Shown here piece after piece: positions 9,426-61,303 of a stretch of DNA of 64,000 bases. Both the position numbers and the translations under genes were made by a program. Below the pieces are notes generated by a model, which was given only the letters and a program-made list of their open reading frames with translations, was not told where the DNA came from and made no database searches. Numbering within the stretch: the stretch's first letter is position 1; each line of letters starts with the position of its first letter. The stretch is from Bacteroidota bacterium (GTDB taxonomy: Bacteria; Bacteroidota; Ignavibacteria; Kapaibacteriales; DASPKH01), in assembly GCA_040386315.1 (NCBI GenBank), contig JAZKFS010000001.1, positions 24,099 to 88,098 of the forward strand, written 5' to 3'.

Positions 9426-9435
9426 TAATATTTAT

Positions 9436-9579
9436 TTGTCATTCCCCTGAAAAGGGGAATCAACGTTGGTTGGACGCGTCAGGATACAATTCTCGTTTTA
9501 AAAACAGCGCTTTTAAAATGTCATAACATCATTTTTCAACTTCTTCTGACGTTGATTCCCCTTTTCAGGGGAATGACAG
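9436..9579. repeat. Palindromic MITE-like element, copy 2 (longer variant; TGTCATTCCCCTGAAAAGGGGAATC...GATTCCCCTTTTCAGGGGAATGACA)
   Basis: It has the same terminal TGTCATTC / GAATGACA inverted repeats and the internal AACTTCTTCTGACG core as the other copies. Confidence 0.8.
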
Positions 9580-9600
9580 ATGTAAAAAACAACCACTACA

Positions 9601-9689
9601 TTGTCATTCTGAGCATCGCGAAGAATCCACGTTGGAATGACTGAACGCGAACTTTTGCCGTAGATTCTTCGCTCCGCTCAGAATGACAA
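9601..9689. repeat. Palindromic MITE-like element, copy 3
   Basis: ttgtcattctgagcatcgcgaagaatc...gattcttcgctccgctcagaatgacaa, with the central GAACGCGAACTTTTGCCG core. Confidence 0.85.
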
Positions 9690-9713
9690 TGCAGGTAAGA
9701 AAGAATTAATCGA

Positions 9714-9840
9714 AAAAATCCCCTCCTCGGAGGGGTGCCCATCGGGCGGGGTGGGTTCGCGTTGGATGGTCGCGCGATTGCTGACGATTGCTACTGTGAG
9801 CCCACCCCGGCCTGCGGCCACCCCTCCGGGGAGGGGATTT
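9714..9840. repeat. GC-rich long imperfect hairpin (aatcccctcctcggaggggtg ... cacccctccggggaggggatt)
   Basis: The terminal inverted repeats are about 20 bp. The composition is strikingly GC-rich relative to the flanks. The hairpin sits in the intergenic region between the MmeI-like gene and ispH. Confidence 0.7.
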
Positions 9841-9844
9841 TAAA

Positions 9845-9885
9845 AACAAAAAAGCAGTTCCCTTTTTTAAAAAGAAACTGCTTTT
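9845..9885. terminator. Bidirectional rho-independent terminator between the convergent MmeI-like gene and ispH
   Basis: aaaagcagttccc-ttttttaaaaa-gaaactgctttt forms a GC stem flanked by T/A runs on both strands. Confidence 0.6.
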
Positions 9886-9912
9886 AAAAACTTTTAAAAT
9901 ATTTTTAAAACC

Positions 9913-10818
9913 TTACACCGCTTCGTGAGCGTAGCGCTCCTCTATCGCGCGTTTCACCTCATCCATGTGCCACTGTGGCGTGCTTGTCGCTCCACTGATA
10001 CCAACCGTTTCCGCGCCGTCAAACCACTCGTCCTGAAGCTCATCAATATCTTCGATGAAATAGGTACGCTCATTCACCGCTTTGCACACGTCGTGCAGCA
10101 CCTTGCCATTTGAAGATTTGCGCCCGGCAACGAATATTATCACGTCATTTTCCTGCGCGAATTTCGCCAGTTGCGTTTCCCGCCCGGAAACCTGTCCGCA
10201 GATGGTGTCTTTGGTGTGAAATTCCGTTGCTATATTTTCGGCAGAATCTACGATGAGCTCTTTAATACGCGCCTGAAGTGCATCACGGATCGCGTAGAAT
10301 GTCGGCCTGTCCATCGTCGTCTGTGAAAAAAGTACAGTTTTCCGGTTGAAATCCACCGCTTTTAAAGCTTCTTCTTCGCTCAGCACGACAATTGCATTAT
10401 CACGGCAAACGCCGCGGATCCCGAGAACTTCGGCATGATCGTATTTCCCGAAAATAACGATCTGGTAGCCACCATCGTAGAATTTGCGGACGCGCTCCTG
10501 GAGCTTCGTTACCACCGGGCACGTTGCGTCAATGATCTCGATCCCGTTTTTAAAAGCTTTCACGTATGTTTCCGGCGGCTCGCCGTGTGCGCGGATAATT
10601 ACACGCGCATCCTGCCCGGCGATCGTTTCAAAATCGTCAATAGTAATCGTTTTTAAACCTGCCTGCGCCAGGCGTTCGATCTCTTTTGGATTGTGAATAA
10701 TATGCCCGAGAACGTACACGGGAGTGCCGGGATATTTCGCCAGCATTTCTTCCGCTATATGGACCGTACGGACGACGCCCCAGCAAAACCCCGAGTTTTT
10801 ATCTATGGAAACCTGCAT
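9913..10818 (-). CDS. ispH: 4-hydroxy-3-methylbut-2-enyl diphosphate reductase IspH/LytB
   Basis: MQVSIDKNSGFCWGVVRTV matches the conserved N-terminal Cys motif of IspH. The protein is similar to IspH across its full length, including the ATCP and SSNGK regions. Confidence 0.95.
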   Translation of the reverse strand: MQVSIDKNSGFCWGVVRTVHIAEEMLAKYPGTPVYVLGHIIHNPKEIERLAQAGLKTITIDDFETIAGQDARVIIRAHGEPPETYVKAFKNGIEIIDATCPVVTKLQERVRKFYDGGYQIVIFGKYDHAEVLGIRGVCRDNAIVVLSEEEALKAVDFNRKTVLFSQTTMDRPTFYAIRDALQARIKELIVDSAENIATEFHTKDTICGQVSGRETQLAKFAQENDVIIFVAGRKSSNGKVLHDVCKAVNERTYFIEDIDELQDEWFDGAETVGISGATSTPQWHMDEVKRAIEERYAHEAV

Positions 10819-10864
10819 TGATTTTAAAAGTAGGTTTTAAAAAGAAGTTAGTTAAAGTAAATGT

Positions 10865-11560
10865 TTAACTGTTTTTTTCAATTTGTTCAGTATTCATCGC
10901 TTTAAAAGCAAGTTCAAGAATTGTCTCAACCTGTTCTGTAACGGAAAGCTTGGTAGTGTCAATTTCTATAGCATCCTCTGCTTTTAAAAGCGGCGCTACT
11001 ACACGCTCTGAATCCATTTTATCGCGTTCCTTCAGCTGCTGCGCCACTTCATCTTCGGAAGAAAGGATACCTTTTGCATTCATTTCACTGCTACGACGTT
11101 GTGCGCGCTTGTCTATTGAGGCGGTCATAAACACCTTCACCTCGGCATTAGGAAATACCACTGTACCAATATCGCGCCCGTCCATTACCACGCCTCCGCT
11201 CCGCCCGATCATGCGCTGCTGCTCCACCATTGCACGGCGCACGGCAACTTTTGCGCTGACCACACTGACATTTTTCGTAATGTCCGGGTGGCGGATCTCA
11301 TCGCTCACATCCTCGCCGTTTAAAAACGTCCGCTGCCCGTGAGGCGATTGCGCCAGCTCGATCAGGAGGTTTTCGACTAATTCGCTTAACGATTCTTCCG
11401 TAAATTCGATCCCTTCTCGCAGCGCAGCAAGCGTTACGGCGCGGTACATCGCCCCTGTGTCAATATATATGTAATGCAGCCGGTCAGCCAGCATTTTCGC
11501 CGTTGTGGTCTTACCCGAACCGGCAGGCCCGTCAATTGCTATGATAATATTTTTTTTCAT
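10865..11560 (-). CDS. cmk: Cytidylate kinase
   Basis: IIIAIDGPAGSGKTTTAKMLADRLHYIYIDTGAMYRA contains the P-loop and the Cmk signature (IDTGAMYR). Confidence 0.95.
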   Translation of the reverse strand: MKKNIIIAIDGPAGSGKTTTAKMLADRLHYIYIDTGAMYRAVTLAALREGIEFTEESLSELVENLLIELAQSPHGQRTFLNGEDVSDEIRHPDITKNVSVVSAKVAVRRAMVEQQRMIGRSGGVVMDGRDIGTVVFPNAEVKVFMTASIDKRAQRRSSEMNAKGILSSEDEVAQQLKERDKMDSERVVAPLLKAEDAIEIDTTKLSVTEQVETILELAFKAMNTEQIEKNS

Positions 11561-11578
11561 GAAATCTTTTTAAAAACC

Positions 11579-12298
11579 CTACTGTAACTCAGTCAATGCG
11601 CGAATTGTGCGCTCCAAATCCGAAAAATCTTTTAAAACCAGGTCCGGCTGTAATTCCTGCAGATCTTCTACTGTTGATTCTGCCGTCGCCACGCATACTA
11701 CCGGGATATTATTGGCGTGAGCGCAGTCTATATCGCGCGGCGAATCGCCGATTATCACGCTATTTGCGCTCTTAAAGACATCTGTGCCGTTTTTATCGTT
11801 GGCGCGCTGTATTGCTATCGGCGGGAGTTTGCGGCGCTCTATATTGTCGCAACCAAAGGCGCCGGTTTTAAAAAAGCCGTCCAGACCGTACGAACTTAGT
11901 TTTAAAAACGCGCATTCACGCAGGTTTCCCGTTACCAGCCCAAGCTCTACGTTTTTATTTTCCGAAAGTGTTTTTAAAAGCTGCGGGACGCCGGGCAAAA
12001 GGTCAATATGCTCCGGTGAAATATACTCCGCGCAGAGTTCAGCAAGCGTTCGCTGGAGTTCCGGCATCTTTTGCTGAAATTCGGCATCATCTATTTTTAA
12101 AACATCGGCAATTTCTTTAAAGATCAGCAGGTCGGTCTTCCCGGCAAAGCTCGTGAGCGAGCCGTCGGGCAGGTCCCTTTTAAAAACTTCCTGCGTCAGG
12201 CGGCGCGTGATCTCGGTCGAGCGCCCGCGTTTCCAGCGTATCAGCGTTCCGTCAATATCAAATAATAAAAGTTTACGCGGCATAGCAAAACAAAACAT
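11579..12298 (-). CDS. HAD-superfamily hydrolase (phosphoglycolate-phosphatase-like)
   Basis: HAD motif I LLLFDIDGTLI is present, and a C-terminal GDSPRDIDCA matches motif IV. The true start is probably Met7 (MPRKL). The gene lies in a minus-strand operon HAD-cmk-ispH. Confidence 0.8.
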   Translation of the reverse strand: MFCFAMPRKLLLFDIDGTLIRWKRGRSTEITRRLTQEVFKRDLPDGSLTSFAGKTDLLIFKEIADVLKIDDAEFQQKMPELQRTLAELCAEYISPEHIDLLPGVPQLLKTLSENKNVELGLVTGNLRECAFLKLSSYGLDGFFKTGAFGCDNIERRKLPPIAIQRANDKNGTDVFKSANSVIIGDSPRDIDCAHANNIPVVCVATAESTVEDLQELQPDLVLKDFSDLERTIRALTELQ

Positions 12299-12504
12299 TG
12301 GTAAAAAATTCCCGCTAAATTACGCCTTTTACCGTAAATATTTGTTTTAAAAAACACTTTTAAAAAGCTATTTCGGCATAGAAACCAAATATTACAACGA
12401 TTTTAAAAGCGTTTCAAAATCGGAGATAAGAAAGAAAGTGTACGGATTTTCGTAATTTGCGCAATTAAGACATCTACATATTTCACCAACTCTTTTTAAA
12501 ATTT

Positions 12505-14649
12505 ATGAAAAAACATTTTCAGACATTTCTTGCGTGCGGACTTCTTACTGCAAGTGCTCTGCCGCTCTTTGCGCAGGTACAGATCGCCCCGCCAAGCGGA
12601 AATCCGCATGGAGTAAAAGGAACAGCGACGATTTTAAAATCAAAAGTGAACACGCTGGCTGCTCCCAATGCAACGATCTACAGCCACGGCGACCCGACTG
12701 ACGAAGAGCAATATACGCTAGAACTGATCAACCGCGCCCGCGCAAACCCGACAGAAGAAGGAATCCGCCTTGCCAATACAACAGACCCGGATGTAACTTC
12801 TTCCTATCAGTATTTCAATATCAATACAAATACGGTAAAAACGCAGTTCGCCGGGTATCCATCACGTCCGCCACTTGCTTTTAATGAAAAGCTGATCTCA
12901 GCCGCGCGCAAGCATTCGCAATGGATGAAGGACAATAATACACAAAGCCACACCGGCGCTAACGGCACGTCTCCTTTTCAAAGAATGAATAACGAAGGAT
13001 ACACCGGCTGGTCAAATGCAGGCGAAAATGTGGCTGCATACGCGCGCAGCCTCTGGCATGGGCATGCGGGATTTAACGTGGACTGGGGCACACAAAACCA
13101 GATCGATCTCGGCCACCGCGAAAATATCATGAATTTTAAAAACTTCACCTACACAGAGATCGGTGTTGGGATTATTCATGCCAGCGGCGGCGGCAATCAG
13201 GTCGGGCCAATGATCATCACGCATGACTTTGGCAGACGCGCAGATTATTTCCTGACAGGAGTAGTTTTTAAAGACAATAATAATAACGGTTTCTATGATG
13301 TCGGCGAAGGCGTTTCGGGCGTGACTGTTACACCATCGAAAGGTACATTTTACGCCATTACATCAAGCTCCGGCGGCTACGCAATTCCTATGACAAATGT
13401 CAGCGGTCCTGTCAGCGTAACGGCATCCGGCACGGGAATTGGCGGAAGCGCAACCAAAAACGTATCATTTTCCGGTGAAAATGTAAAACTGGATTTCACT
13501 TCTGCCCTGCCGGGAAATGTTTCGCTCATCTCTCCTGCAAATGAAGAGCTTTTAAAAGCGGATTCGGTAAAATTCTCGTGGATGAAAAGCGCGAATGTAT
13601 CAAAATACTGGTTTGAGCTTTCCGAAAAACCGGATTTCACAACAGTTGTAAAACGTGATTCGACACTCAGCGACACAACATTTCCTTTTAAAAACCTCAC
13701 TAACGGCAAAACATATTTTTGGCGAGTAAAAGCTAAGACTACAGCCGGCTGGGGCGATTTCTCCGAAGCTAATTCATTCACGGTTGAGATCATTCCTGAT
13801 ATGGTTGAATTATCATATCCTGCTAACTTCATCGATGTCGGCACGCAAACCCGCATTGGCTGGTACAAACAGGCAGGCGCTACAAAATACTGGTATGAAT
13901 ATTCCACCGATGAATTCTTTTTGGAAAATGTCACGAGCGATACAAATACGAGCGACACGACAGCGCTTTTAAAAGCGTTAGAGCCCGGCATAAGTTACTT
14001 CTGGCACGTCAAAGCATCGAACGGCACATATTGGGGTGAGTTCTCTGAAACACGTTCGTTTATTACGCAGTTGACGCTTCCGGCGCAGGTGGAGTTGATT
14101 TCACCTGAGGATGGAACTCTAGATTTATTAGATTTAAGGTTTAAATGGATAGCAATTCCAGACGCAAACTTTTATGAACTAGAAGTTTCTGAAGATTCTA
14201 CTTTTACAAATATAGTTTTTCGGGATAGTACAATAACTCAGAATGAAATTGGTGAATCTACTTTTGGTACAGGAACCGGAGCAAGGTATTTTTGGCATGT
14301 CCGTGCAAAAAATCTTGATGGTTGGGGTGAATATAGCCCAACATGGCAATTTACGGTACATGGACTATCAGTATACGAAAACGCAGCATCCAAATTCAAA
14401 CTCGAAAATTCCCCAAATCCTTTTGAAAAAGCAACAGCAATCAAATTCACGCTTTTAAAAGACCAGAATGTGACACTCCGCATTTACAATGCAGCCGGGC
14501 AGGAAGTTTTTAAAAGCGTTTTAAAAGACGCTCACGAAGGCGAAAATTCCTTCACATGGCATGCCTCCGGCTTTGAGAACGGCGTCTATTATTACGAAAT
14601 TGAAGCGGACAATATGAAGGGAATTCGCCCTATGGTCCTGGTGAAATAA
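12505..14649 (+). CDS. Secreted CAP/SCP (PR-1-like) domain protein with four fibronectin-III-like repeats and a T9SS C-terminal sorting domain
   Basis: A signal peptide is present. The CAP-like region contains EEQYTLELINRARANP. There are four repeats of about 90 aa with a W..S.....YFW(R/H)VKA..GWG(D/E)FSE pattern. The C-terminus (NSPNPFEKATAIKFTLLKDQNVTLRIYNAAGQEV) is a Por-secretion tail. Confidence 0.75.
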   Translation: MKKHFQTFLACGLLTASALPLFAQVQIAPPSGNPHGVKGTATILKSKVNTLAAPNATIYSHGDPTDEEQYTLELINRARANPTEEGIRLANTTDPDVTSSYQYFNINTNTVKTQFAGYPSRPPLAFNEKLISAARKHSQWMKDNNTQSHTGANGTSPFQRMNNEGYTGWSNAGENVAAYARSLWHGHAGFNVDWGTQNQIDLGHRENIMNFKNFTYTEIGVGIIHASGGGNQVGPMIITHDFGRRADYFLTGVVFKDNNNNGFYDVGEGVSGVTVTPSKGTFYAITSSSGGYAIPMTNVSGPVSVTASGTGIGGSATKNVSFSGENVKLDFTSALPGNVSLISPANEELLKADSVKFSWMKSANVSKYWFELSEKPDFTTVVKRDSTLSDTTFPFKNLTNGKTYFWRVKAKTTAGWGDFSEANSFTVEIIPDMVELSYPANFIDVGTQTRIGWYKQAGATKYWYEYSTDEFFLENVTSDTNTSDTTALLKALEPGISYFWHVKASNGTYWGEFSETRSFITQLTLPAQVELISPEDGTLDLLDLRFKWIAIPDANFYELEVSEDSTFTNIVFRDSTITQNEIGESTFGTGTGARYFWHVRAKNLDGWGEYSPTWQFTVHGLSVYENAASKFKLENSPNPFEKATAIKFTLLKDQNVTLRIYNAAGQEVFKSVLKDAHEGENSFTWHASGFENGVYYYEIEADNMKGIRPMVLVK

Positions 14650-24309: not shown

Positions 24310-24383
24310 GCACCCGTAGCTCAACTGGATAGAGCATCTGACTACGAATCAGAAGGTTGTAAGTTCGAATCTCGCCGGGTGCA
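24310..24383 (+). tRNA. tRNA-Arg(ACG). It serves as the integration site (attL side) for the downstream insertion.
   Basis: GCACCCG-TA-GCTC-AACTGGATA-GAGC-A-TCTGA-CTACGAA-TCAGA-AGGTT-GTAAG-TTCGAAT-CTCGC-CGGGTGC-A gives a cloverleaf with anticodon ACG (there is one A.C pair in the T-stem). A terminator hairpin (aaatccttataag...cttataaggattttt) follows. Confidence 0.9.
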
Positions 24384-24781
24384 CTCTAAATCCTTATAGG
24401 TCAATGACTTATAAGGATTTTTGCTTTTAACGCGTAACAAATACATAACAAAAATATCGCGTTTTTTAGTTGACTTCTTAACATTTAGCCCACTTTTGCT
24501 CAAGTTTCTTAGTTAAGTTTGGAATTTTTCCAGTAACACCACCCACCTAGGAGTTATTAGTGGTATGCAATAAACCAAATTATCTAAGCCAAAGAGAACT
24601 CCTGTAAAACTGACACGATCTTCCGAAGTCTTCAGACTTCGACCGGGCCTCAGTATGAAATAGATTCCAGAAAAAAGCTTAACAACTTCATGGTTAACCT
24701 TTATGTCTCCCGTACACCTAAGACTAACCTATTTTGTTTTATACCTGCATTTTTTGTTCGTACTCGATACAGTAGTATCTT

Positions 24782-48200: not shown

Positions 48201-48253
48201 TACCTTACTCCTACGAATCAGAAGGTTGTAAGTTCGAATCTCGCCGGGTGCAC
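48201..48253 (+). mobile_element. Direct repeat of the 3' 43 nt of tRNA-Arg(ACG) (att core; right boundary of the pfa insertion), preceded by TGGTCTAAT arm-type direct repeats
   Basis: ctacgaatcagaaggttgtaagttcgaatctcgccgggtgcac is identical to tRNA-Arg positions 32-74. Upstream are tggtctaattttggtctaata repeats (48138-48160). Downstream is a terminator hairpin (aaagcccttgaac..gttcaagggcttttt). Confidence 0.75.
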
Positions 48254-51773: not shown

Positions 51774-51806
51774 AGAGAACTCCTGGTTTTACAGGAGTTC
51801 TTTTCT
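51774..51806. terminator. Bidirectional terminator hairpin between the convergent BNR gene and pnkp
   Basis: aagagaactcctg-gttttac-caggagttctttt. Confidence 0.6.
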
Positions 51807-51815
51807 AATCTTCTG

Positions 51816-54368
51816 TTAGAGCCGCGGATCCACTGGCTCACTCTCTAATGCAAGTACTCCAAAGACACACTCATGGACTCGCCGTAATGGTTCTTTTAAA
51901 ACAAATCTTTCCATTGCCTCCACACCCAACGCAAATTCCCGCAAAGCAAGCGAGCACTTACCAGAAAGGCCTCGAGAGCGCAACCGTTCGAGATTTTTAG
52001 GGAAATCATATTCAGGCCCATAAATAATCCTCAAATACTCTCTCCCGCGACACTTTACAGCTGGCTGAATTAGGCCTCGTTTTCCTCGTGCTATAAAATC
52101 CAGAGGTTTGACGACAGCTCCCTCGCCTCCTGCATTCGTCATAGATTCCCACCACATGATTGCATCAGCAACGGTTTCTTCTTTTTCAAAATCCACAATT
52201 TTAAAAGCAGTTTTAAAAAAGAATTCCGCGTCTGTTGAGCACAATTGCGCGATAGTCTCCATGTGCCAGAGGTGGTTTTTGTCCGTGTGAACAGTGCCTT
52301 CCGTTGCCAGAATGTGAAATGGCGCAAGTCTTATCCCTTTTAAAGAATCCACAGGCCAGCAGTAATTGCGATAGGATTTTGTGTAATCCTCCACAGCTTC
52401 CTGTCTGTTTTTAAAATGTGCTGAAAGCTCGCCAACGTCCAGCCCGTTTTCCAACGCCGTTTTTAAAACGCTGTTTGCAGCTTCGAGCGAATGTTTTGCG
52501 GCAGCACCGACGGTGGCATACTGCGTTTTTAAAAGCTCCTGCGCTTTGGCTGACCACGGCAGAAGCTCGCAGTCGAGGCAAATCCAGTCTGTTTTTAAAA
52601 CGTCCCACAGCCCGGACGTTTCCATTCCGTCAGTAACCTTTTTTAAAAACTCCTTTTCAAGATTTTTCTCGGTAAAAAACGGCCTTCCAGTCCGAGTATA
52701 GCATACTCCAATTTCATCTCCATTAATACCAAATCGTTTTTTAGCGGAGGCATTATCACGACATACGATCACAACAGCACGAGAACCCATATGTTTTTCC
52801 TCGCATATCACTGAAGGTACTCCCTCTTTCCGATAATAGGCAAGTGCTTCCTCAATATGCTCAAGATAATCCTCTCGCTTACTGGTTTCACTCGGTGACA
52901 TTGTTGGTGGAAGATACATGAGCCATTTGGGATTCACTGCAAAACGACTCATAAGCTCAAGAGCTGCAATAGAATTTTCTTCCCTGATCGTAACTGTATG
53001 ATGCAGTTTCGTGGGAATAATTCGTTTTCCTGAGATGTCGGACAAATCCAGAATGTCGTCTGCCTCAAAGGGAGTCGTTCCTGCTTGCAGCTGGTCATAC
53101 CCAATCGGTTTTGATGGTATGGCATATTGATTTTTAGCCTGAACATGAACAATTTCACGCTCAGGGTACCGAAGCGCGGAAAGCTTTCCGCCGAACACAC
53201 ATCCAGTATCAATATTCATCGTATTGTTGAGCCACACAGCTTCAGGGACTGGAGTATGTCCATAGACTACCATCGACTTTCCACGATATTCCGCTGCCCA
53301 GTTCAACCGTACTGGAAGCCCAAATTCATCCGTTTCTCCTGTCGTTTCGCCAAAAAGAGCAAAATCACGAACCTTCGCTGAGCCTCTTCCCTGCAATTCC
53401 TCTTTTATTCCTGCATGAGCTACAACGAGTTTTTCATTATCGAGGACATAATGACTAATAAGCCCATCAATGAACTTTGCAACCCTCTCAGAAAATTCTT
53501 TTGGCCGTTGCTCAAGCTGCTCCAAAGATTCAGCCAGTCCATGGGCAATCTTGACATTCCGCCCTGTTAGTTTTTTCATGAGCTTAATATCATGGTTACC
53601 TGGCACGCACAAAGCTATGCCAGACGAGACTGAGTTCATAACCAGTTCCAGGACTTCCGGTGTTTTCGGTCCACGATCTACAAGGTCACCCAGGAAGATG
53701 ATTTTCCTGCCGTGTGTCGCTGTAATATCCGGTCCGTTATCAGTATCTATGACCTTGTAATCAAGCTTCGTCAGTAATTCCACCAATTCATCATAGCAGC
53801 CATGAATATCACCGATAATATCAAACGGGCCATGTTCGTGTGAACGATTATTCCATAGAGGTTTTCGGGTGATTTGCACTTTTTCTACGGCTTCCTGTGA
53901 ATCCAGAACATACGTAAAGCGAAAACCCTCCCGCTTTAAAGCTTTAAGTGAACGTCTCAGTTGATGGCGCTGCTGCGGTATAACATGAGAGCCAAAATTC
54001 CTGTCAGAACGCATCGCGTTTCTATCTAGACATACTCTTTCCGGCATATCAAGCACAATTGCTACCAGATGGCAATGATATTGCTGAGCAAGCATAAGCC
54101 ATGATTTTCTGGCTTCCGGCTGCACATTTGTTGCATCAATGACCGTCAGGCGTTTAGCAGAAAGACGCTTTGCAGTTATATACTGCAATACATCAAAAGC
54201 GTCCTTTGTAGCCGCCTGATTATTTTCATCATCCGACACCAGCCCCCGGCAATAGTCCGATGACAGGATTTCAGTCGGTAAGAAATGCTTCCTTGCAAAT
54301 GTTGATTTTCCTGACCCTGAAGCTCCCATAAGCACCACAAGGCAAAATTCCGGTAATTCTATGTTCAT
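51816..54368 (-). CDS. pnkp: Polynucleotide kinase-phosphatase Pnkp (RNA repair): 5'-kinase - metallophosphoesterase - C-terminal adenylyltransferase/ligase-like domain
   Basis: The P-loop is VVLMGASGSGKST. The calcineurin-type phosphatase motifs are GDIHGC, GDLVDRG and GNHD. The C-terminal nucleotidyltransferase motif is I-like (EEKHMGSR, KxxGxR). The protein is 850 aa, and its start overlaps the hen1 stop by 1 nt. Confidence 0.85.
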   Translation of the reverse strand: MNIELPEFCLVVLMGASGSGKSTFARKHFLPTEILSSDYCRGLVSDDENNQAATKDAFDVLQYITAKRLSAKRLTVIDATNVQPEARKSWLMLAQQYHCHLVAIVLDMPERVCLDRNAMRSDRNFGSHVIPQQRHQLRRSLKALKREGFRFTYVLDSQEAVEKVQITRKPLWNNRSHEHGPFDIIGDIHGCYDELVELLTKLDYKVIDTDNGPDITATHGRKIIFLGDLVDRGPKTPEVLELVMNSVSSGIALCVPGNHDIKLMKKLTGRNVKIAHGLAESLEQLEQRPKEFSERVAKFIDGLISHYVLDNEKLVVAHAGIKEELQGRGSAKVRDFALFGETTGETDEFGLPVRLNWAAEYRGKSMVVYGHTPVPEAVWLNNTMNIDTGCVFGGKLSALRYPEREIVHVQAKNQYAIPSKPIGYDQLQAGTTPFEADDILDLSDISGKRIIPTKLHHTVTIREENSIAALELMSRFAVNPKWLMYLPPTMSPSETSKREDYLEHIEEALAYYRKEGVPSVICEEKHMGSRAVVIVCRDNASAKKRFGINGDEIGVCYTRTGRPFFTEKNLEKEFLKKVTDGMETSGLWDVLKTDWICLDCELLPWSAKAQELLKTQYATVGAAAKHSLEAANSVLKTALENGLDVGELSAHFKNRQEAVEDYTKSYRNYCWPVDSLKGIRLAPFHILATEGTVHTDKNHLWHMETIAQLCSTDAEFFFKTAFKIVDFEKEETVADAIMWWESMTNAGGEGAVVKPLDFIARGKRGLIQPAVKCRGREYLRIIYGPEYDFPKNLERLRSRGLSGKCSLALREFALGVEAMERFVLKEPLRRVHECVFGVLALESEPVDPRL

Positions 54369-55765
54369 TAATGTATTCTCCTTTTAAAAACAGCCATTTG
54401 TGTCGGCGAGCCCAAATCCTCATTCACTTCACCAACCGTGAAAAAGTCTGCTTCGTAGCCGTATTTCGCTCCAACCTGATGAGCCCACGCCTGAAACTGC
54501 TGACGCGTCCATTCAAACCGGTGATCCTTATGCCTGAATTTTCCTGCCGGCAACGTTTCAAAAAGTGCATTATACTCTGCATTTGGAGTCGTAACAATCA
54601 CTATTCCAGGTTTTGAAAATCCGAATACATTGCGCTCAAGAGCCGTTAATCTATCTTCATCTAAATGTTCAATTACTTCAATGATTGTCGCAACATCATA
54701 GCCCTCAAGACGCTTGTCACGATAGACAAGAGACGAGTGCAGAAGCTGTATGCGCTGTCGCTGTTTCTCCGGCAGCATATCTAATCTCAAGCGTTTTGTA
54801 GCAATCTCCAGCGTCCGGTAGGAAACGTCCATTCCTACGATCTCAGTAAATTGTTTATCACCTAGAAGCATTTTTAAAAGATTGCCTTCTCCACAGCCAA
54901 GATCCAAGACTCGAGATGCTCCGGTGCCTTTTACTTGTTCAAATACACTCTGCATCCGTATATCATTGAGCCGTAGCTTTTTCTCTACCTGTTCTTCTTC
55001 CTGTGCATGCTCTTCTTCCTTTTCAGCAATCACCGATTCATCAGGTATTAATCTTTGTAGTGCCTCATTTGCCAGAGCTGCCCTATGTTTCAGATAACGT
55101 TTTGTGATGAGTTCCTTTTCAGGATGTGACGCTAGCCAGCCATCTCCTTTGCGGAGGAGTTTTTCCAACTCACCCGTATCTACCCAGTAATGCTTTTCAT
55201 CATCCAGTACTGGGATAAGTACATAAAGATGATTAAGCATATCCTGAACTCTACACACGCCCCAAATTTGAACATCGAAATACCGGCTGTCACCCCACTC
55301 GGGAAATTTCTCATCCAGGGTGAGGCGTTGAGCCTTTACAGTATAACCAAGTGGTTCAAAGAGATTTTTCAGTACAGTCTCGCCACCCCTGCATGGTAGA
55401 ACCGGTATAGCTACAGTAAGTGGAATCGCTGTTTCAGCAAGCTCCTGCCTGTCCTTGCTTCTGCCGCCCATCGCCGTTCCGAAAACCTGCGCCAGCGCCA
55501 CGCTTAAAAACGACGATGCTGCATACGGCCTGTCATTCACATATTGTTGGAGTGCAAATGCCTGCTCGGATTTTTTCCGCACAAGCCCCACCGGGTCAAC
55601 ATCTATGAGTAACGCCGCTGTGCACCTCTTCTCCGTAGCTTCAGGATAGAAAATATGCGCCTGACCAAAGCTCAAATTTGTTGTTTGAACCCGTGCGGGA
55701 TTTTTATGAAGCAAAAAACCCAGGTCTGTTGCGGGCTGATGCGTTGTTGTTATTGTAAGAAGCAT
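54368..55765 (-). CDS. hen1: 3'-terminal RNA ribose 2'-O-methyltransferase Hen1 (bacterial)
   Basis: The protein is 465 aa with the N-terminus MLLTITTTHQPATDLGFLLHKNP. The C-terminal SAM-MTase motif is VLDLGCGEGNLLKML. It is translationally coupled to pnkp. Confidence 0.8.
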   Translation of the reverse strand: MLLTITTTHQPATDLGFLLHKNPARVQTTNLSFGQAHIFYPEATEKRCTAALLIDVDPVGLVRKKSEQAFALQQYVNDRPYAASSFLSVALAQVFGTAMGGRSKDRQELAETAIPLTVAIPVLPCRGGETVLKNLFEPLGYTVKAQRLTLDEKFPEWGDSRYFDVQIWGVCRVQDMLNHLYVLIPVLDDEKHYWVDTGELEKLLRKGDGWLASHPEKELITKRYLKHRAALANEALQRLIPDESVIAEKEEEHAQEEEQVEKKLRLNDIRMQSVFEQVKGTGASRVLDLGCGEGNLLKMLLGDKQFTEIVGMDVSYRTLEIATKRLRLDMLPEKQRQRIQLLHSSLVYRDKRLEGYDVATIIEVIEHLDEDRLTALERNVFGFSKPGIVIVTTPNAEYNALFETLPAGKFRHKDHRFEWTRQQFQAWAHQVGAKYGYEADFFTVGEVNEDLGSPTQMAVFKRRIH

Positions 55766-55809
55766 ATGTGATTCAGCTTTTAAAAAGCGTTTTTATGTTT
55801 TTAAAAAAT

Positions 55810-57186
<1,377 letters not shown>

Positions 57187-57198
57187 TTAAAAGTAATT

Positions 57199-58143
57199 TT
57201 ACAAATCCAGCACTTGAAATTCCGAAATCCTAAATTCCTTTCTTTTTACAAGTTTTGGTTCTTTTAAAAGAAATTCCGGCTTTTCCTTCGTGCTTTTAAA
57301 ACAAAACCTGCGCGGCAAATCTGTATAAATTGAGCGAGGCGGCTTTTTATAACTAATGTCTTTTAAACGATTCCCGCTTTCATATTCATGGTAAAAAATC
57401 CTGCGGATTCCCATTTCCTCGCGGATAAACCACAGCGCAGCGGCCAGCATCGCCTCATCCCAAATCTTCACATGCGGTTTTAAAACGTCTTCTACATACG
57501 TGTGCAGATTTCCCGAATTTACACGATTGCGATGTGTCAGCTGACGCACACGAACACGATTATCGTCGAGTGATTCCACCACTTCCACCGTTGTGCTTCT
57601 ACGCAGTGCCACACGAATCCAGTCATTTTGGATTTCCTCTATCAACGCCTCGCCCGTCGTCAGGTCGAGGTCAATCCGTGCCCACGCCATCGTGCGCCGT
57701 TCACCACCTGCAATCGGATGGCATGAATATTCAAACGGATGGTAATCTTTCGGCTTTATCATCGAAGTATAAGCGCGATTGTGTCCGGCATTGAAATTCA
57801 TTTGCAGAACGATATTCAATCCCGCGCGCGTTTTTTGAGCACCCCATTGTAAGCCGCGTCCCCATTGACCAACTGTCAACGTGTACGATTCAAAGCTCTC
57901 CGGCCACTTCATTTCAAAAAGCTCTGGATAAAGCATTCCGTCCGGTGCCAAAGCAATCAGCTCCCGAACGTCTTTCTTCTCCAGCAAACCTTTAAAAGGC
58001 GTGGCCTTAATATCGCGCACATGTTTGCGCTCTTTCGTCAGATATTGCAAAATCTGGCGCGCGTATTTATCCCGAAAATAATAGAATACCGTCCGCCCCG
58101 GCGTCAGGCACTCGATAATTTCCCTGTATTCTTTTTCTGTCAT
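57199..58143 (-). CDS. Hypothetical protein (314 aa) embedded in the RNA-repair cluster
   Basis: The ORF is uninterrupted and co-oriented with the cluster, 25 bp upstream of the rtcB-like gene. No motif was recognised. Confidence 0.4.
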   Translation of the reverse strand: MTEKEYREIIECLTPGRTVFYYFRDKYARQILQYLTKERKHVRDIKATPFKGLLEKKDVRELIALAPDGMLYPELFEMKWPESFESYTLTVGQWGRGLQWGAQKTRAGLNIVLQMNFNAGHNRAYTSMIKPKDYHPFEYSCHPIAGGERRTMAWARIDLDLTTGEALIEEIQNDWIRVALRRSTTVEVVESLDDNRVRVRQLTHRNRVNSGNLHTYVEDVLKPHVKIWDEAMLAAALWFIREEMGIRRIFYHEYESGNRLKDISYKKPPRSIYTDLPRRFCFKSTKEKPEFLLKEPKLVKRKEFRISEFQVLDL

Positions 58144-58542
58144 AAAAATAGATTATTCTGTCGTTTTTAAAAGTTATTTTTTTCACATTTCCGCAGCTAA
58201 TCCGCGGTTTTAAAAGTTTGTTTGTCCCGCTACCGGGCAGATAATTTTGTCTTAGAATTGTCATTGGATGTTTCCTCCGTTTTGGATTTTTAAAAGAAAA
58301 ACCCGCTCCTGCACGAAGCAAAAGCGGGTTTTAAAAGTTGAAAATTTTAAAAACACTACCTTCGCTTCAGACACAATACACCACGCCCATCCCGCTTTTG
58401 CAGCAGATTTATCGCGTGGCTATATTGTTCAATAAAGGAGCGCATTGTTTTTAAAAGTAATTGCTTATAAAAAAAGTAATAATTCATTGTACCTGCCGAA
58501 AACAGGTTTCCCGCAGGTACAATTTTTAAAAGCCTAGCGAAC

Positions 58543-59976
58543 TCAGTTTTTAAAAGAAACCGAGCTAATTTTCTCAATCATCGAAGCTTTATCTGTTTCC
58601 ATCAGCTTCATGATGTCGAAAATTTTATCTGAAAATCCGGCCGTGCAGAATACTTTGTTTTGAGGCAATTGCAGTGTTCCATAGCCTTGCAGATCAAATG
58701 AATAGACAAACGGGTCAGCGCCAGTACGGCGTTTGTACGCTGTGAATTCGTTTGCCGGAGTGTCATTGCCAATCCAGCCCTGCATGTCTGACAAGATGAT
58801 GATGCGGTCGTATTTTCTTTTCGCCTTTTGAAAGATCGCGTGGAAGTTTGTACCTCCCATCGCAAATTTTATCGAACGCGCAATCGTTATTGTGCTGTCG
58901 CCAATATTCACGTTTTTGTAGGCCGCATCATCGGAAAATGTCATAAAATCAGCATTGTTGGATTTCACCAGGATTGCCGAAAACAGCGAACCGATTTCAG
59001 CCGGTTTTCCCGCCATCGAACCCGAAACATCCAGTACAACAAGCGTTTCGCCATCGAACTTCGGAACGTTATTCAGTGAAATGTCAACCGCCGTATTCAG
59101 CGCTTGCAGCACCTCGCGAACAACTTTCCCGCTGTCCATTTTTAAAACTTCCTCGTACGCCGTTGTAAAGCGGAACGGCAGAACAAGTGATTTTTTAATC
59201 AGGCGCTCGTTCGTCAGCATTTCCAGAGCTTCGCCGATGACGTCAGGTGCCTGCGTAATGATATTGCGCAAGTTTCGCAAAAGTGCAAAGTAGCCGATTT
59301 TTCGCGAGCGAATCAGCTCCGTCCACGCTTCGTTTTTAAAAACGGCTTTTTGCTCGTCGTTTTCAGCTGTTTGTCCGGTTTTTGTCAGCGCGGATTCCCA
59401 TGTACCTGTTGAGCGAAGTTCATCTTTAATCAATGCCGAAATTGCTTCAGCATTTTTCTCAACCGGCACCGGGTGAACCAGATTCACAACATCTACAAGT
59501 TTAAAATCTTTAGATGCCGCACGGTATTTACCCAGCTGGTAGCTATCGAAACGTTCGAATGCTTTTGCAAAACCTTTTTTCATTGAGTTCGGCACTTTAC
59601 CGTTCGTCGCTGTGTGGTATGCCAGGATTTCCATCATGTCATCCGGACGGAATACAACCGCGCTGTAAAAATCCTTCGCCCACACCTGTCCGCCGATGTG
59701 CTTTGCCAGCTCTGAAGCGACCACATGCGAAATCGTACGCATACCAAATTCCGTTCGCGCAAAAATGGCTGCCTTCGCGACGAACTCCTTGTCGCAGAGT
59801 GCGATGAGATTTTTCAATCGCTCTAAGCCGTCATGCTGGCTTCTGTAAAACTGGTCTTTCACGAACGACGTGACCAGCATCGAAACCAGTTCGAGTTCAG
59901 GCGACTGCTTGTACGCATCACCGCCCGCGAAGTTTTTGACTTTTGCCAAAGCTGTTGAAAAATTAAATCGTGCCAT
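58543..59976 (-). CDS. rsr: Ro60-related protein Rsr (TROVE domain + C-terminal vWA domain)
   Basis: It has a TROVE-like N-terminal region and a C-terminal vWA domain with the MIDAS motif LVVLDVSGSM. It sits immediately downstream of the tRNA-like ncRNA array. Two terminator hairpins follow the gene (58488-58525, 58290-58330). Confidence 0.65.
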   Translation of the reverse strand: MARFNFSTALAKVKNFAGGDAYKQSPELELVSMLVTSFVKDQFYRSQHDGLERLKNLIALCDKEFVAKAAIFARTEFGMRTISHVVASELAKHIGGQVWAKDFYSAVVFRPDDMMEILAYHTATNGKVPNSMKKGFAKAFERFDSYQLGKYRAASKDFKLVDVVNLVHPVPVEKNAEAISALIKDELRSTGTWESALTKTGQTAENDEQKAVFKNEAWTELIRSRKIGYFALLRNLRNIITQAPDVIGEALEMLTNERLIKKSLVLPFRFTTAYEEVLKMDSGKVVREVLQALNTAVDISLNNVPKFDGETLVVLDVSGSMAGKPAEIGSLFSAILVKSNNADFMTFSDDAAYKNVNIGDSTITIARSIKFAMGGTNFHAIFQKAKRKYDRIIILSDMQGWIGNDTPANEFTAYKRRTGADPFVYSFDLQGYGTLQLPQNKVFCTAGFSDKIFDIMKLMETDKASMIEKISSVSFKN

Positions 59977-60037
59977 TATGCACCTCCTCTAAAAAATATG
60001 GAAACATGGCTTTTTAAAAAGCCGGGGAATCAAAAAA

Positions 60038-60112
60038 ACGGCAGAGAAAACTGCGGGAGTTCTACTGGGCGATTTAGCAAATCGAAGTAACTCAAAGCCG
60101 CATCACTACTGC
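60038..60112 (-). ncRNA. Y-RNA-like repeat unit A (short form, lacks a tRNA-like module)
   Basis: It shares the unit ends (GGCAGAGAAAA ... CACTACTGC) and the internal CGAAGTAACTC motif with units C-F. Confidence 0.35.
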
Positions 60113-60138
60113 TTTTAAAAAGACAATTTTAAAAATAA

Positions 60139-60222
60139 GAGGCAGAGAAAATTCGCGTGGAATTTAGGGCGAATTAAAAGTTCGCTGCTTTAAAGCGATG
60201 TATTCCGCGTGTCGCTACTGCC
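60139..60222 (-). ncRNA. Y-RNA-like repeat unit B (short form)
   Basis: It has the same terminal motifs (GAGGCAGAGAAA ... CGCTACTGCC) with complementary ends. Confidence 0.35.
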
Positions 60223-60235
60223 TTTTTAAAATAAA

Positions 60236-60362
60236 TGACGGAGAAAATGGGGTAAGGCTGTGCTTTACCAATTTAGCTACCAACGGAGTTTTAAAACCCC
60301 GATGGACTGGACTCGAACCAGCAATGACTTACGTCGAAGTAACTCACCTTTCACTACCGTCA
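60236..60362 (-). ncRNA. Y-RNA-like (YrlA-type, tRNA-mimic) unit C
   Basis: The minus strand reads GACGGTAG..GAGTTACTTCG..CTGGTTCGAGTCCAG-TCCATCGG..CCGTTGG-TA-GCTAAATTGGTAAAGC..CTCCGTCA. That is T-arm, then 3' acceptor strand, then a short linker, then 5' acceptor strand plus D-arm. The acceptor strands are complementary (6/7), and the unit ends pair (GACGG/CCGTC). Confidence 0.45.
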
Positions 60363-60392
60363 AACTTTTAAAAATGAAAGAACAAAAAATAA

Positions 60393-60532
60393 AGAGGCAG
60401 AGAAAGTTTATGTAGGACTTTTTCGTTGCTCTACCAACTGAGCTATATTCAGAATTTTAAAATCTGAACAGCCGGACTCGAACCGGCGACCCACGGCACC
60501 CTAAGCGAAGTAACCCACATATCGCTACTGCC
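60393..60532 (-). ncRNA. Y-RNA-like (tRNA-mimic) unit D
   Basis: The T-arm is GCCGGTTCGAGTCCGGC. The 3' acceptor strand TGTTCAG pairs with the downstream CTGAATA, which is followed by TA-GCTCAGTTGGTAGAGC (D-arm). Confidence 0.45.
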
Positions 60533-60547
60533 TTTAAAAAAACAAAA

Positions 60548-60692
60548 TGACGGAGAAAATCTGAGTGAGTAAGCTGCTCTACCAACTGAGCTACATCCCC
60601 ATTTTTAAAAACTTAAATCAGAGGAGATGGCGGGACTCGAACCCGCGACAGGCCGCGTGATAAGCGAAGTAACCCACTCGTCGCTACCGTCA
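60548..60692 (-). ncRNA. Y-RNA-like (tRNA-mimic) unit E
   Basis: The T-arm is GCGGGTTCGAGTCCCGC. The 3' acceptor strand CATCTCC pairs (with one G.U) with the downstream GGGGATG, which is followed by TA-GCTCAGTTGGTAGAGC. The unit ends are TGACGG/CCGTCA. Confidence 0.45.
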
Positions 60693-60703
60693 AAAAAATA
60701 CGT

Positions 60704-60833
60704 GATGGAGAAAGTTTACAGGAGTTGTTAGGCGAAACGCTCTAACCTTTGAGCTATATTCCGTTAGCTGGAACAGCCGGACTTGAACCGGCAACGTTTT
60801 CGTACGAAGTAACTCGCCGTATCACTACCATCA
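60704..60833 (-). ncRNA. Y-RNA-like (tRNA-mimic) unit F
   Basis: The T-arm is GCCGGTTCAAGTCCGGC. The 3' acceptor strand TGTTCC pairs with GGAATA, which is followed by TA-GCTCAAAGGTTAGAGC. The unit ends are GTGATGG/CCATCAC. Confidence 0.45.
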
Positions 60834-61252
60834 CATTTTCCAAAGAACATTTTTAAAAGCAAAAAACCCACCTTCGCGAATCTTGCAAAGGTGGGTTTTC
60901 AAAAAGATGAAACCGCTCTATATGTATTGCTACACTACCTCTGCTTTAGACAAAACCCTTCCTGACTGCCAAGCATATGCTTGCGGTCTATCACGGGATT
61001 ATATGTTGCTAAAGTGAGGCGCATTGTTTTTAAAAGTAATTATCGTCGTGTTTGTAAAATTGAGTTGCAAACCTACAAAGGTTTTTTACAAAGTCAAATT
61101 AATTTTTTGTCATAATGCAAATAATTATAAGACTTCACATCGGTAAGTTTTACATTGTGATGCTAAAGAAGTATTTAAATTTGATATTTCTCTGGTCTAA
61201 TACAGGTCTACTGGTTCAAGAAATCCCTTAAATTTACCAGATTTCACCACAT

Positions 61253-61303
61253 ACCTTACTCCTACGAATCAGAAGGTTGTAAGTTCGAACTCGCCGGGTG
61301 CAC
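61253..61303 (+). mobile_element. Second direct repeat of the tRNA-Arg 3' half (att core with a 1-nt deletion) with upstream arm-type repeats
   Basis: ctacgaatcagaaggttgtaagttcgaa-ctcgccgggtgcac. It has the same 10-nt upstream context (taccttactc) as the 48.2-kb copy. TGGTCTAAT / AGGTCTACT repeats lie at 61190-61215. A terminator hairpin follows. Confidence 0.7.

Follow-up and report, generated by a model that had tools for sequence, protein, structure and literature searches.

An RNA-repair cluster that joins RtcB and Hen1-Pnkp to a phage-type Ro protein, six Y RNAs, and a recurrent RtcB neighbor

In a 64,000-nt stretch from a Bacteroidota bacterium (contig JAZKFS010000001.1, positions 24,099 to 88,098; here called the window, with positions counted from its first nucleotide), a minus-strand cluster running from 61124 to 51776 combines a phage-type Ro protein and six Y RNAs with two systems for RNA ligation, RtcB and Hen1-Pnkp. 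The cluster spans 9.3 kb of a single strand and consists, in order, of a conserved upstream region, a leader (leader A), the six Y RNAs, rsr, a second leader (leader B), an open reading frame (ORF) of 314 amino acids (aa), and the genes for RtcB, Hen1, and Pnkp. We regard it as probable that the cluster was assembled horizontally from modules, that it responds to RNA damage, most likely to damage of tRNA, and that it is gated by the two paralogous leaders, each of which ends in a terminator. Every enzyme of the cluster belongs to a known family, and Rsr-Y-RtcB and Pnkp-Hen1 are known cassettes; Burroughs and Aravind reportedly surveyed multi-ligase RNA-repair neighborhoods in 2016. What is new is above all the RtcB-associated family of the 314-aa protein, together with the particular assembly, the two leaders, and the presence of a Y array of six members beside the ligases.

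The ligases, the Ro protein, and the Y-RNA array

An earlier note on this DNA, made from the sequence alone, had described five contiguous, co-oriented ORFs and had assigned four of them to Hen1, Pnkp, the RtcB family, and Rsr (Ro60). Domain searches against Pfam and NCBIfam upheld these assignments, and all five ORFs lie on the minus strand at the coordinates given below, tightly spaced: 24 nt separate the 314-aa ORF from rtcB and 44 nt separate rtcB from hen1, and the hen1 stop codon overlaps the pnkp start. Pnkp, a kinase/phosphatase/ligase of 850 aa (51816 to 54368), matched TIGR04075 (bacter_Pnkp) over residues 1 to 850 with 1407 bits compared to a cut-off of 750, and its Pfam architecture is an AAA_33 kinase followed by Metallophos and PNKP_ligase. 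Hen1, an RNA 3′-terminal 2′-O-methyltransferase of 465 aa (54368 to 55765), scored 733.6 bits compared to a cut-off of 340 for TIGR04074 (bacter_Hen1) and consists of the Pnkp-activating Hen1_L region at its N terminus and a SAM methyltransferase domain. Both proteins are thus members of their equivalog families. A terminator hairpin detected by the terminator scan at 51776 to 51801 closes the cluster on the same strand.

The RtcB-family protein, a 3′-phosphate/5′-OH RNA ligase of 454 aa (55810 to 57174), is of a different kind. Its match to PF01139 (117.3 bits compared to a gathering score of 27) is limited to profile positions 136 to 424 and covers only the C-terminal two thirds of the ORF, and it scores below every NCBIfam equivalog cut-off, for example, 76 compared to 407 bits for PRK09588 and 50 compared to 272 bits for the PrfH-linked TIGR03073. 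It therefore represents a divergent subfamily. The catalytic motifs are kept, since SADICC/DINCG, GDGNHF/GSGNHF, HHGSRG/HTGSRG, and PHGAGR/CHGAGR align between this protein and P. horikoshii RtcB (PH1602); these contain what we take, from PH1602, to be the Asp/Cys and three His metal ligands and the His nucleophile in HGAGR. The protein also has an extra N-terminal module, in which residues 2 to 29 show a weak match (E 0.03) to the tail of CCA-adding enzymes. The same module was found in an RtcB of another lineage that is only 28% identical.

The rsr gene (477 aa, 58543 to 59976) encodes a phage-type Ro60 homologue with a TROVE domain (66 bits compared to a cut-off of 23) and a vWA_Ro60 domain that falls slightly below its cut-off (23.1 compared to 27.7 bits). 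Its best solved-structure relative is Ro60 of Thermus phage phiLo (PDB 9KOP/9L5Y), to which residues 13 to 463 align with an E value of 1e-24. The protein fails the NCBIfam equivalog of bacterial Rsr, NF041674, by a wide distance (28.5 bits compared to 900) and falls in the phage-type clade instead. Its closest nonself relatives, 68 to 69% identical, are encoded on phage contigs of IMG/VR, and each of these carries a Y-RNA array as well. By sequence, this Rsr looks phage derived. A hairpin found by inspection follows the rsr stop codon (58489 to 58520, minus strand); the closest relative of the cluster, on the contig DASPKH010000453.1 (L007), has a hairpin of other sequence at the same place, and the surrounding spacer is 58% identical.

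The Y-RNA array, also proposed earlier, proved to hold six units. At the Rfam gathering threshold, the whole window yielded only two tRNAs and no Y RNA, and at the E-value threshold YrlA (RF02553) gave four matches between 60232 and 60831, with 28 to 46 bits, under the gathering score of 69; the last two units were undetected even there. A covariance model (R1) was built from an alignment of the four YrlA-like units of the window and four orthologous units of L007. Compensatory changes are seen in 14 of the 31 pairs predicted in its consensus fold, which comprises a terminal stem (GGTAGYGA paired with TTTCTCC), an invariant GTTACTTCG, a T-arm, a loop-closed acceptor-like stem, and a D-arm; GGTTCRAGTCC and TAGCTCA..GGTAGAGC are invariant in the alignment. 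This is the structure of YrlA, an end-to-end stem with a T-arm, closed acceptor stem, and D-arm, directly upstream of rsr. Searched against the window, R1 found the six units between 60834 and 60031, all on the minus strand. Y RNAs 1 to 4 are YrlA-like: Y RNA 1 (60694 to 60834), with its tRNA-like module, scored 113.6 bits with R1 and 28 bits with Rfam YrlA, Y RNA 2 (60538 to 60693) scored 136.9 and 46.3 bits, Y RNA 3 (60385 to 60534) scored 147.2 and 39.4 bits, and Y RNA 4 (60226 to 60363) scored 128.8 and 33.3 bits. The other two are short and lack the tRNA-like module. Y RNA 5 (60130 to 60224; 49.8 bits) has a Ro-type stem, and Y RNA 6 (60031 to 60115; 24.4 bits, E 0.007) is the weakest of the six and just 62% identical to its L007 counterpart, the range for all Y RNAs being 62 to 88%. 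Because the consensus fold shows covariation and R1 finds six units, the array is real, its members being four RNAs of the YrlA class and two shorter ones that are Y-like. In D. radiodurans, M. smegmatis, and phages, too, rsr is known to have several Y RNAs upstream (PMC4201824), and six is at the upper end of the known numbers. Binding of these RNAs by Rsr is predicted from the adjacency of its gene to them.

These identities suggest a division of labor. RtcB seals 2′,3′-cyclic-phosphate or 3′-phosphate ends directly to 5′-OH ends. Pnkp/Hen1 heals the same ends, 2′-O-methylates the junction nucleotide, and seals, and the junction then resists being cut again by a transesterifying nuclease (PMC6097658). 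Ro/Y ribonucleoproteins (RNPs) tether a 3′-5′ exonuclease for the decay of structured RNA, and the tRNA-like domain that YrlA carries may be a decoy (PMC7790460). In the cluster, one module would be the phage-type Ro60 gene behind six Y RNAs, four of them with a tRNA-like domain, and the other a four-gene operon for the GNAT-like 314-aa protein, the divergent RtcB, Hen1, and Pnkp. RtcB would reseal 2′,3′-cyclic-phosphate/5′-OH breaks directly as the fast route, Pnkp/Hen1 would provide a protective resealing with a 2′-O-methylated, cleavage-resistant junction, the Rsr-Y RNPs would triage or degrade unrepairable RNA with a 3′-5′ exonuclease or serve as decoys for tRNA nucleases, and the 314-aa protein would be an accessory of RtcB-type repair. 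The earlier note had spoken of a complete machine for healing, sealing, and protecting broken RNA. This overstates the case, because the two ligation routes are alternatives for the same type of break and not steps of one pathway. The actual repair or decay targets of bacterial RtcB and of Ro/Y RNPs are poorly known so far, and a cluster in which both ligation routes stand together with a Ro RNP, its six tRNA mimics, and a further conserved protein suggests cleaved tRNA as their common substrate.

Twin leaders ahead of both halves of the cluster

A 25-nt repeat had been pointed out upstream of the Y-RNA array and between rsr and the 314-aa gene and was proposed as a shared promoter or operator of two transcription units. 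The repeat is exact and nonrandom, with two copies found (58440 to 58462 and 61019 to 61041) and none expected; it is, however, 23 nt long, and its upstream copy lies about 10 nt away from the position first given. Its core, TTTTAAAA, is over-represented genome-wide (177 occurrences compared to 10 expected), and the full 23-mer is unique to the two sites. The homology around this box extends for ∼180 nt, through a hairpin and a terminator. Alignment, folds, and the terminator scan delimited the two units on the minus strand: leader A (60862 to 61041) consists of the box at 61041 to 61019, a long imperfect hairpin, and an intrinsic terminator at 60900 to 60862, and leader B (58298 to 58462) consists of the box at 58462 to 58440, a long hairpin, and an intrinsic terminator at 58332 to 58298. 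Both show the same order of box, conserved ATATA, hairpin P1, conserved TGTCYRAAGCRRAGGTAGWGT, and a terminator of 15 to 16 pairs with a T run. The P1 stems differ between the two copies yet remain paired, and no other terminator in the 10 kb scanned is as strong as these two (16 and 15 pairs).

The box may act as one strand of an RNA helix. RNAalifold paired it with the GCRRAGGTAGTGT segment around P1, with 94% of the cells pairing compared to 29 to 75% in slid controls, and two pairs of this helix switch from C-G/U-A to U-A/C-G between copies A and B. Single-sequence folds agreed, copy B with a z-score of −6.8. A common cis element thus does precede both halves of the cluster, as had been proposed, but the 23-mer is the 5′ strand of a predicted hairpin of ∼110 nt that is followed by a 15- to 16-bp terminator.

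Three features of the leaders bear on their role. First, terminator A ends 28 nt before Y RNA 1 and terminator B ends about 35 nt before the next start codon, so that expression downstream needs read-through; as in an attenuator, an intrinsic terminator stands directly upstream of the genes to be regulated. Second, leader A is 92 to 96% identical to L007 and, together with the upstream region, is the most conserved part of the cluster (rsr: 88%), and leader B is 86 to 89% identical compared to 58% for the spacer right before box B. From these identities, the leaders are under selection. Third, the region upstream of leader A (61042 to 61124, minus strand), where the homology to L007 begins, is 95% identical to it and is a likely promoter. 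It contains TTTG-N19-TAGGTTTG at 61098 to 61068, which fits the Bacteroidetes −33/−7 consensus, a pattern that is not enriched in the window (4 found, 3 expected). Both L007 and L087, another contig of this lineage, break off no more than ∼100 nt upstream of leader A, perhaps because of a repeat at this point in those assemblies.

From this arrangement we infer cotranscription of the cluster, conditional read-through, and the nature of the signal. A single promoter in the conserved region would start transcription, which would have to pass two leaders, each a long hairpin and then a strong intrinsic terminator, before any expression. As conditional terminators, the leaders would thus subject both modules to one signal. 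Taken alone, this gating step is tentative, and we give it somewhat less than an even chance.

Several results weigh against it. When the 5′ strand of the hairpin was blocked in silico, the terminator still dominated the minimum-free-energy (MFE) fold in all four copies, and an 8-bp pairing between the hairpin 3′ strand and the terminator 5′ arm, found by hand in both leaders, never displaced the terminator in constrained MFE folds. A simple built-in antiterminator is thus unsupported, and gating would need a trans-acting factor. The leader structure is drawn from two independent paralogues with only two covarying pairs, and between leader B of the window and that of L007 there are two pair-breaking changes and zero compensations. 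A leader model (R2) run over 2.2 Mb of related loci found the leaders only in the window and in the three relatives L007, L006, and L087; a 17-mer scan of IMG/VR gave 4 chance matches without the leader structure, blastn against phage records gave none, and the leader was not seen upstream of the 314-family genes in other genomes.

The terminators were predicted to be very stable under all in silico conditions tested, which would also suit a role without gating: the leaders might serve RNase III as processing sites, be small RNAs in their own right, or be copies of a mobile element of the miniature inverted-repeat type. A long inverted repeat with a terminator is indeed the form of many small RNA genes and of such mobile repeats. 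We nevertheless think this very unlikely, as both copies in the 64 kb lie within the cluster, in the sense orientation and directly ahead of a unit, and L007 has them at the same two positions; neither Y RNA 1 nor the 314-aa operon has space for a further promoter before it, and the 2.2 Mb of related loci held zero further copies.

A different model, which develops that of the earlier note, takes the 23-mer as a DNA operator or promoter for a trans regulator or an alternative sigma factor, with two separate transcription units that start just downstream of the conserved ATATA and leave the box untranscribed. It would explain why the box is identical in both paralogues when the rest of the unit has drifted to ∼75% identity and why the ATATA (TATAAT in copy A) is conserved ∼16 to 20 nt downstream of the box. 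The hairpin after rsr and the 58% identical spacer before box B suit an independent start of the second unit, and protein regulators are the norm elsewhere (a WYL-WCX protein at 22 of 80 RtcB loci and a small ribbon-helix-helix-like gene before phage-type rsr arrays; see below). There is also precedent in the shared upstream repeats that coregulate tRNA arrays and rtcB (PMC8421152). However, neither copy has a −35-like hexamer at the proper distance, the promoter scan lists none there, and no regulator gene lies in or beside the cluster. Left unexplained are the complementarity of the box to GCRRAGGTAGTGT, the second most conserved segment of the unit, and the two covarying pairs; the 83 nt upstream of box A, 95% conserved and with a Bacteroidetes-type promoter match, also argue against this model. 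The 23-mer may have a promoter or operator role; the model as a whole is rather unlikely. As to the box itself, we lean slightly toward the RNA strand over the DNA operator because of the complementarity and the promoter match upstream of box A, which alone is not significant. If the leaders are conditional terminators, this compact, duplicated element could reveal how RNA-repair clusters without RtcR and WYL regulators are switched on.

Other identities of the leaders were tried and rejected. Rfam gave only a sub-threshold PyrR-like match (26 bits, E 1.1) and noise. The leaders share just the heptamer GGTAGTG with the Y RNAs, and R1 does not detect them; a decayed Y RNA after terminator B was likewise dismissed, its homology to Y RNA 1 being unconvincing. 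By hand analysis, the strands of P1 do not fit the kink-turn consensus, and neither hand analysis nor the promoter scan gave an acceptable sigma-54 or sigma-70 promoter match in the box.

Out of frame with the 314-aa gene and overlapping its start lies a possible upstream ORF of 65 aa (58067 to 58264, minus strand), which has a strong Shine-Dalgarno sequence, GGAGGAAA. In L007 it is conserved with the same stop, the substitutions being distributed 3:3:5 over the codon positions, and its status is uncertain. The same stretch holds two small hairpins, CCCGGTAGCGGG and CCGCGGATTAGCTGCGG, and could be either a coding upstream ORF or an RNA structure.

The core of the box, the palindromic octamer TTTTAAAA, is a word of its own in the window, with 177 copies compared to 10 ± 3 expected (for example, at 9838 to 9910 and 52199 to 52648). 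Its density per strand is ∼7.9/kb in noncoding and 1.9/kb in coding sequence, and it is nearly absent from 24.4 to 45.8 kb. It also occupies the closing loops of the acceptor-like stems of Y RNAs 2 to 4 in the window, and of Y RNAs in L007, even where the stems covary. Candidate explanations are an uptake-signal-like word, a protein site, or loop-loop pairing.

The 314-aa family and the assembly of the cluster

The 314-aa protein (57199 to 58143, minus strand) had been called uncharacterized, and it has no match in Pfam, NCBIfam, PADLOC, or the sequences of the PDB. What had been missed is that it belongs to an unannotated family with a GNAT-like fold that recurs as a neighbor of RtcB. The family yielded 628 matches at 90% clustering and about 855 representative clusters at 50% (484 at E <1e-30); its members are nearly all single-domain proteins of 300 to 330 aa, and it appears cellular because none were found on viral contigs. 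The protein has the GNAT fold, but membership by sequence is lacking, with no Pfam match for any of 65 family members. Mapped by hand from the secondary structure, the acetyl-CoA pyrophosphate-binding motif of strand 4/helix 3 (Q/R-x-x-G-x-G/A) is absent, and an invariant EE.Q.DW stands there. By the same kind of mapping, the invariant residues E169, E170, Q172, D174, W175, H252, and K261 are placed at the GNAT acyl-donor site.

In 4 of the 11 independent contexts looked up, the family gene lies at most two genes from an RtcB, and the four architectures are unrelated. The first is the window cluster, with Rsr and Hen1-Pnkp. In the second (L141 and L145), a tRNA array is followed by a 485-aa protein that is helical and carries a vWA domain, then the family member and a vWA protein, and last an RtcB that has the N-terminal module seen in the window. 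The third (L150) consists of RtcB-RtcA, then RtcB2-PrfH, and then the family member, and in the fourth (L151) a 14-tRNA array precedes a Band-7 protein, the family member, an HNH protein, and RtcB. The tRNA arrays directly upstream of family member and RtcB are long, with 24 genes in L141 (1 to 4160), 18 in L145 (1 to 2234), and 14 in L151 (223 to 1862). The array of L141 contains a YrlA-like RNA at 118 to 288, and the 485-aa protein of this locus, which has no TROVE match, may be a very divergent Ro-like protein.

A random gene would be found beside RtcB in well under 1% of cases by our own, uncomputed estimate. Because 4 of 11 contexts is far above this, the family can be regarded, on the strength of gene context, as a genuine if facultative partner of RtcB-type repair that is linked to tRNA, and its recurrence in four architectures (Rsr/Hen1-Pnkp, tRNA array plus vWA, RtcB2-PrfH, and Band7-HNH) makes it a good candidate for a missing repair cofactor. 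A bolder proposal makes the 314-aa protein an enzyme dedicated to assisting RtcB-type tRNA repair and has the whole repair set of this lineage switched by a new, two-copy, cis-acting RNA element. The protein could modify or de-modify broken or aminoacylated tRNA for RtcB or, like Hen1, mark repaired tRNA against being cleaved again, and the element would sense a damage signal, override its own terminator, and so switch on the Y-RNA decoys and Ro, the 314-aa protein, RtcB, and Hen1/Pnkp. This combined proposal is speculative, and we rate it as doubtful.

The earlier note had tied its functional grouping to conservation of the cluster, and on this point it fared badly. On the RtcB side, a search of the genome collection gave 462 relatives, mostly from Bacteroidota, of which the top 80 (65 to 94% identity) were examined; on the Rsr side, 45 metagenome loci (38 to 91% identity) and 8 IMG/VR contigs (49 to 69%) were examined. 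The whole arrangement occurs in one lineage only (L007, L006, and L087), with 82% nucleotide identity to L007 over 9.3 kb, and among the 80 RtcB loci solely in L007, the RtcB of which is 94% identical. L007 is labeled "Patescibacteria group bacterium," probably a binning error; the 314-aa protein of the window is assigned by NCBI to a Bacteroidota metagenome-assembled genome. Parts of the arrangement recur more widely. RtcB is accompanied by Hen1/Pnkp at 3 of the 51 informative loci (those with at least 3 kb of downstream sequence), in the same order in L055 and convergently in L016, and by Rsr and Y RNA at 4 of 49; a distant Rsr with a Y RNA adjoins the RtcB orthologue in three Balneolaceae loci. 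None of the 45 + 8 loci of Rsr orthologues has RtcB, Hen1, Pnkp, or the 314-aa gene, and nearly all of the 45 have 2 to 7 Y RNAs upstream of rsr. Several Rsr loci are clearly phage, with portal- and capsid-like genes and tRNAs. From the two surveys, each module is mobile by itself, pairs of modules are met repeatedly, and the assembly of the full set is specific to one lineage.

The surveys also brought up neighboring genes. A divergent WYL-WCX regulator (∼345 aa, ∼90 nt upstream of the RtcB orthologue) is present at 22 of the 80 RtcB loci (L046, L050, L054, L057, L059, L060, L065, L066, L068 to L073, L076, L079 to L084, and L086), and a Band-7 protein lies downstream at 5 of the 80. In Balneolaceae, the WYL gene diverges from Rsr, Y RNA, and RtcB, an order that parallels rtcR/rsr-yrlBA-rtcBA with WYL replacing RtcR. 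Just ahead of phage-type Y arrays lies an ORF of ∼60 aa (…F.IEQKWIDRLK……VSSF.RFI.IKFF) in L088, L090, L091, L092, L096, and L098 and, by eye, in L101; it looks like a candidate ribbon-helix-helix protein, and the window has leader A at this place.

The confinement of the full set to one lineage raises the question of whether the cluster is anything more than mobile-element accretion of a phage Rsr/Y cassette, RtcB, and Hen1-Pnkp, with neither joint regulation nor a joint pathway. The modules occur separately nearly everywhere else, and tRNA-derived repeats flank the cluster. Furthermore, hen1/pnkp are 75 to 76% identical in nucleotide sequence to L007 (window 51816 to 55765 compared to L007 5338 to 9287), whereas rsr, the 314-aa gene, and rtcB are 88 to 90% identical, which suggests, by identity levels, a separate history of the Hen1-Pnkp half through cassette replacement by recombination, or else its faster evolution. 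On the other hand, paralogous leaders under purifying selection stand before both halves, the genes are closely spaced on a single strand, L055 and L016 (RtcB-Hen1-Pnkp) and Balneolaceae (WYL/Rsr-Y-RtcB) show independent recurrence of the same pairs, and all parts act on the same substrate class. We therefore consider unconnected modules unlikely.

A horizontally assembled cluster remains our preferred explanation, and the flanks, which the earlier note had not considered, any more than the phage affinity of the Rsr/Y module, are consistent with it. The homology to L007 runs exactly from 61124 to 51816. Downstream of it, L007 has a convergent set (9341 to 13598, minus strand) of a vWA protein (385 aa), a 731-aa protein, and a MoxR-like AAA protein, and the window has a BNR/Sortilin gene. 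An intact tRNA-Arg(ACG) gene at 24310 to 24384 is the source of a 42- to 43-nt 3′-end core that occurs in three direct copies (24342, 48211, and 61262, all on the plus strand), with none expected. The partial copies at 48211 to 48253 and 61262 to 61303, found by repeat search, bound a 13-kb segment on its proximal and distal sides and also share sequence on either side of the core. Repeats of this kind bear the signature of two insertions in tandem at the same tRNA, 24.4 to 48.2 kb and 48.25 to 61.3 kb, the second of which contains the BNR gene and the repair cluster. The first (24310 to 48253) carries a PPTase, a set resembling polyketide synthases and polyunsaturated fatty acid synthases (KS-AT-ACP, KR, and DH; one ORF of 2361 aa), and a TPR-LuxR regulator, and it was probably acquired recently because it is depleted of TTTTAAAA.

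Four points count against a horizontally assembled, jointly acting cluster. First, given the lack of conservation of the full cluster, the modules may do no more than work next to each other. Second, 7 of the 11 contexts of the 314-family have no RNA-repair neighbor. Third, no integrase was found among ORFs of at least 150 aa or in the Pfam results. Fourth, base composition is not deviant, with uniform GC and a host-like density of TTTTAAAA in the cluster; with no integrase and no deviant composition, the island reading draws on the repeats and the flanks. If the second segment is an island at all, it is an old one or what is left of one. PADLOC defense-system models gave no meaningful match to the cluster proteins. 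The island context and the phage affinity of Rsr/Y support the view that RNA-repair modules are traded as defense or counter-defense cargo.

Comparison with known systems

The Salmonella-type rsr-yrlBA-rtcBA operon was reportedly described by Chen in 2013/2014. In Salmonella, rsr, the Y RNAs, and rtcB form one operon that is induced by tRNA fragments (Hughes 2020, PMC7790460). The window cluster resembles it in having a Ro60 orthologue, tRNA-like Y RNAs, and RtcB on one strand, and in its presumed response to tRNA breakage. The differences are many, however. RtcA and the RtcR and sigma-54 control are missing: neither rtcA nor a divergent rtcR (CARF plus AAA+) is among the ORFs of 48.5 to 64 kb, the rest of the window not having been scanned specifically. 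The Y RNAs lie upstream of rsr and number six instead of two, Rsr belongs to the phiLo-like phage clade, and RtcB is divergent and has an extra N-terminal module. Finally, the window cluster adds the 314-aa protein and Hen1-Pnkp, and two terminator leaders replace the protein regulator.

The bacterial Pnkp/Hen1 cassette is said to have been described by Martins and Shuman in 2005, Chan in 2009, and Jain and Shuman in 2010. As in that cassette (PMC6097658), both proteins of the window reach equivalog scores, and their genes are adjacent and overlap. Unlike in a typical cassette, they form the distal half of a longer operon behind RtcB, a position shared by few relatives (3 of the 51 informative loci). 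Thermus phage phiLo has a Ro60, with Y-like RNAs directly upstream (PMC12135203), that is the best solved-structure relative of the window Rsr. The window differs from phiLo in the number of Y RNAs, which is six and not two, in the tRNA-like module of YrlA that four of the six contain, in its link to ligases, and in a setting that looks chromosomal or island borne and not like a phage genome.

The leaders recall terminator-based attenuators and processive antitermination RNAs of the PyrR, T-box, and put/EAR type, in which a structured leader and then a strong intrinsic terminator stand directly before the genes, and this common architecture accounts for the weak resemblance to the PyrR site. 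Unlike those, the window leaders match no Rfam family, have no thermodynamically competitive antiterminator, and are known from one lineage only. In Anabaena, long tRNA arrays and rtcB are coregulated through shared upstream repeats (PMC8421152), and the window has much in common with this system: an array of tRNA-shaped genes beside RtcB, mobility, and a shared upstream repeat proposed for coregulation. Here, in contrast, the array consists of Y RNAs, which are tRNA mimics with a Ro-binding stem, and the repeat is part of a hairpin-terminator unit. True tRNA arrays beside the 314-family and RtcB, as in that system (PMC8421152), are found in L141, L145, and L151.

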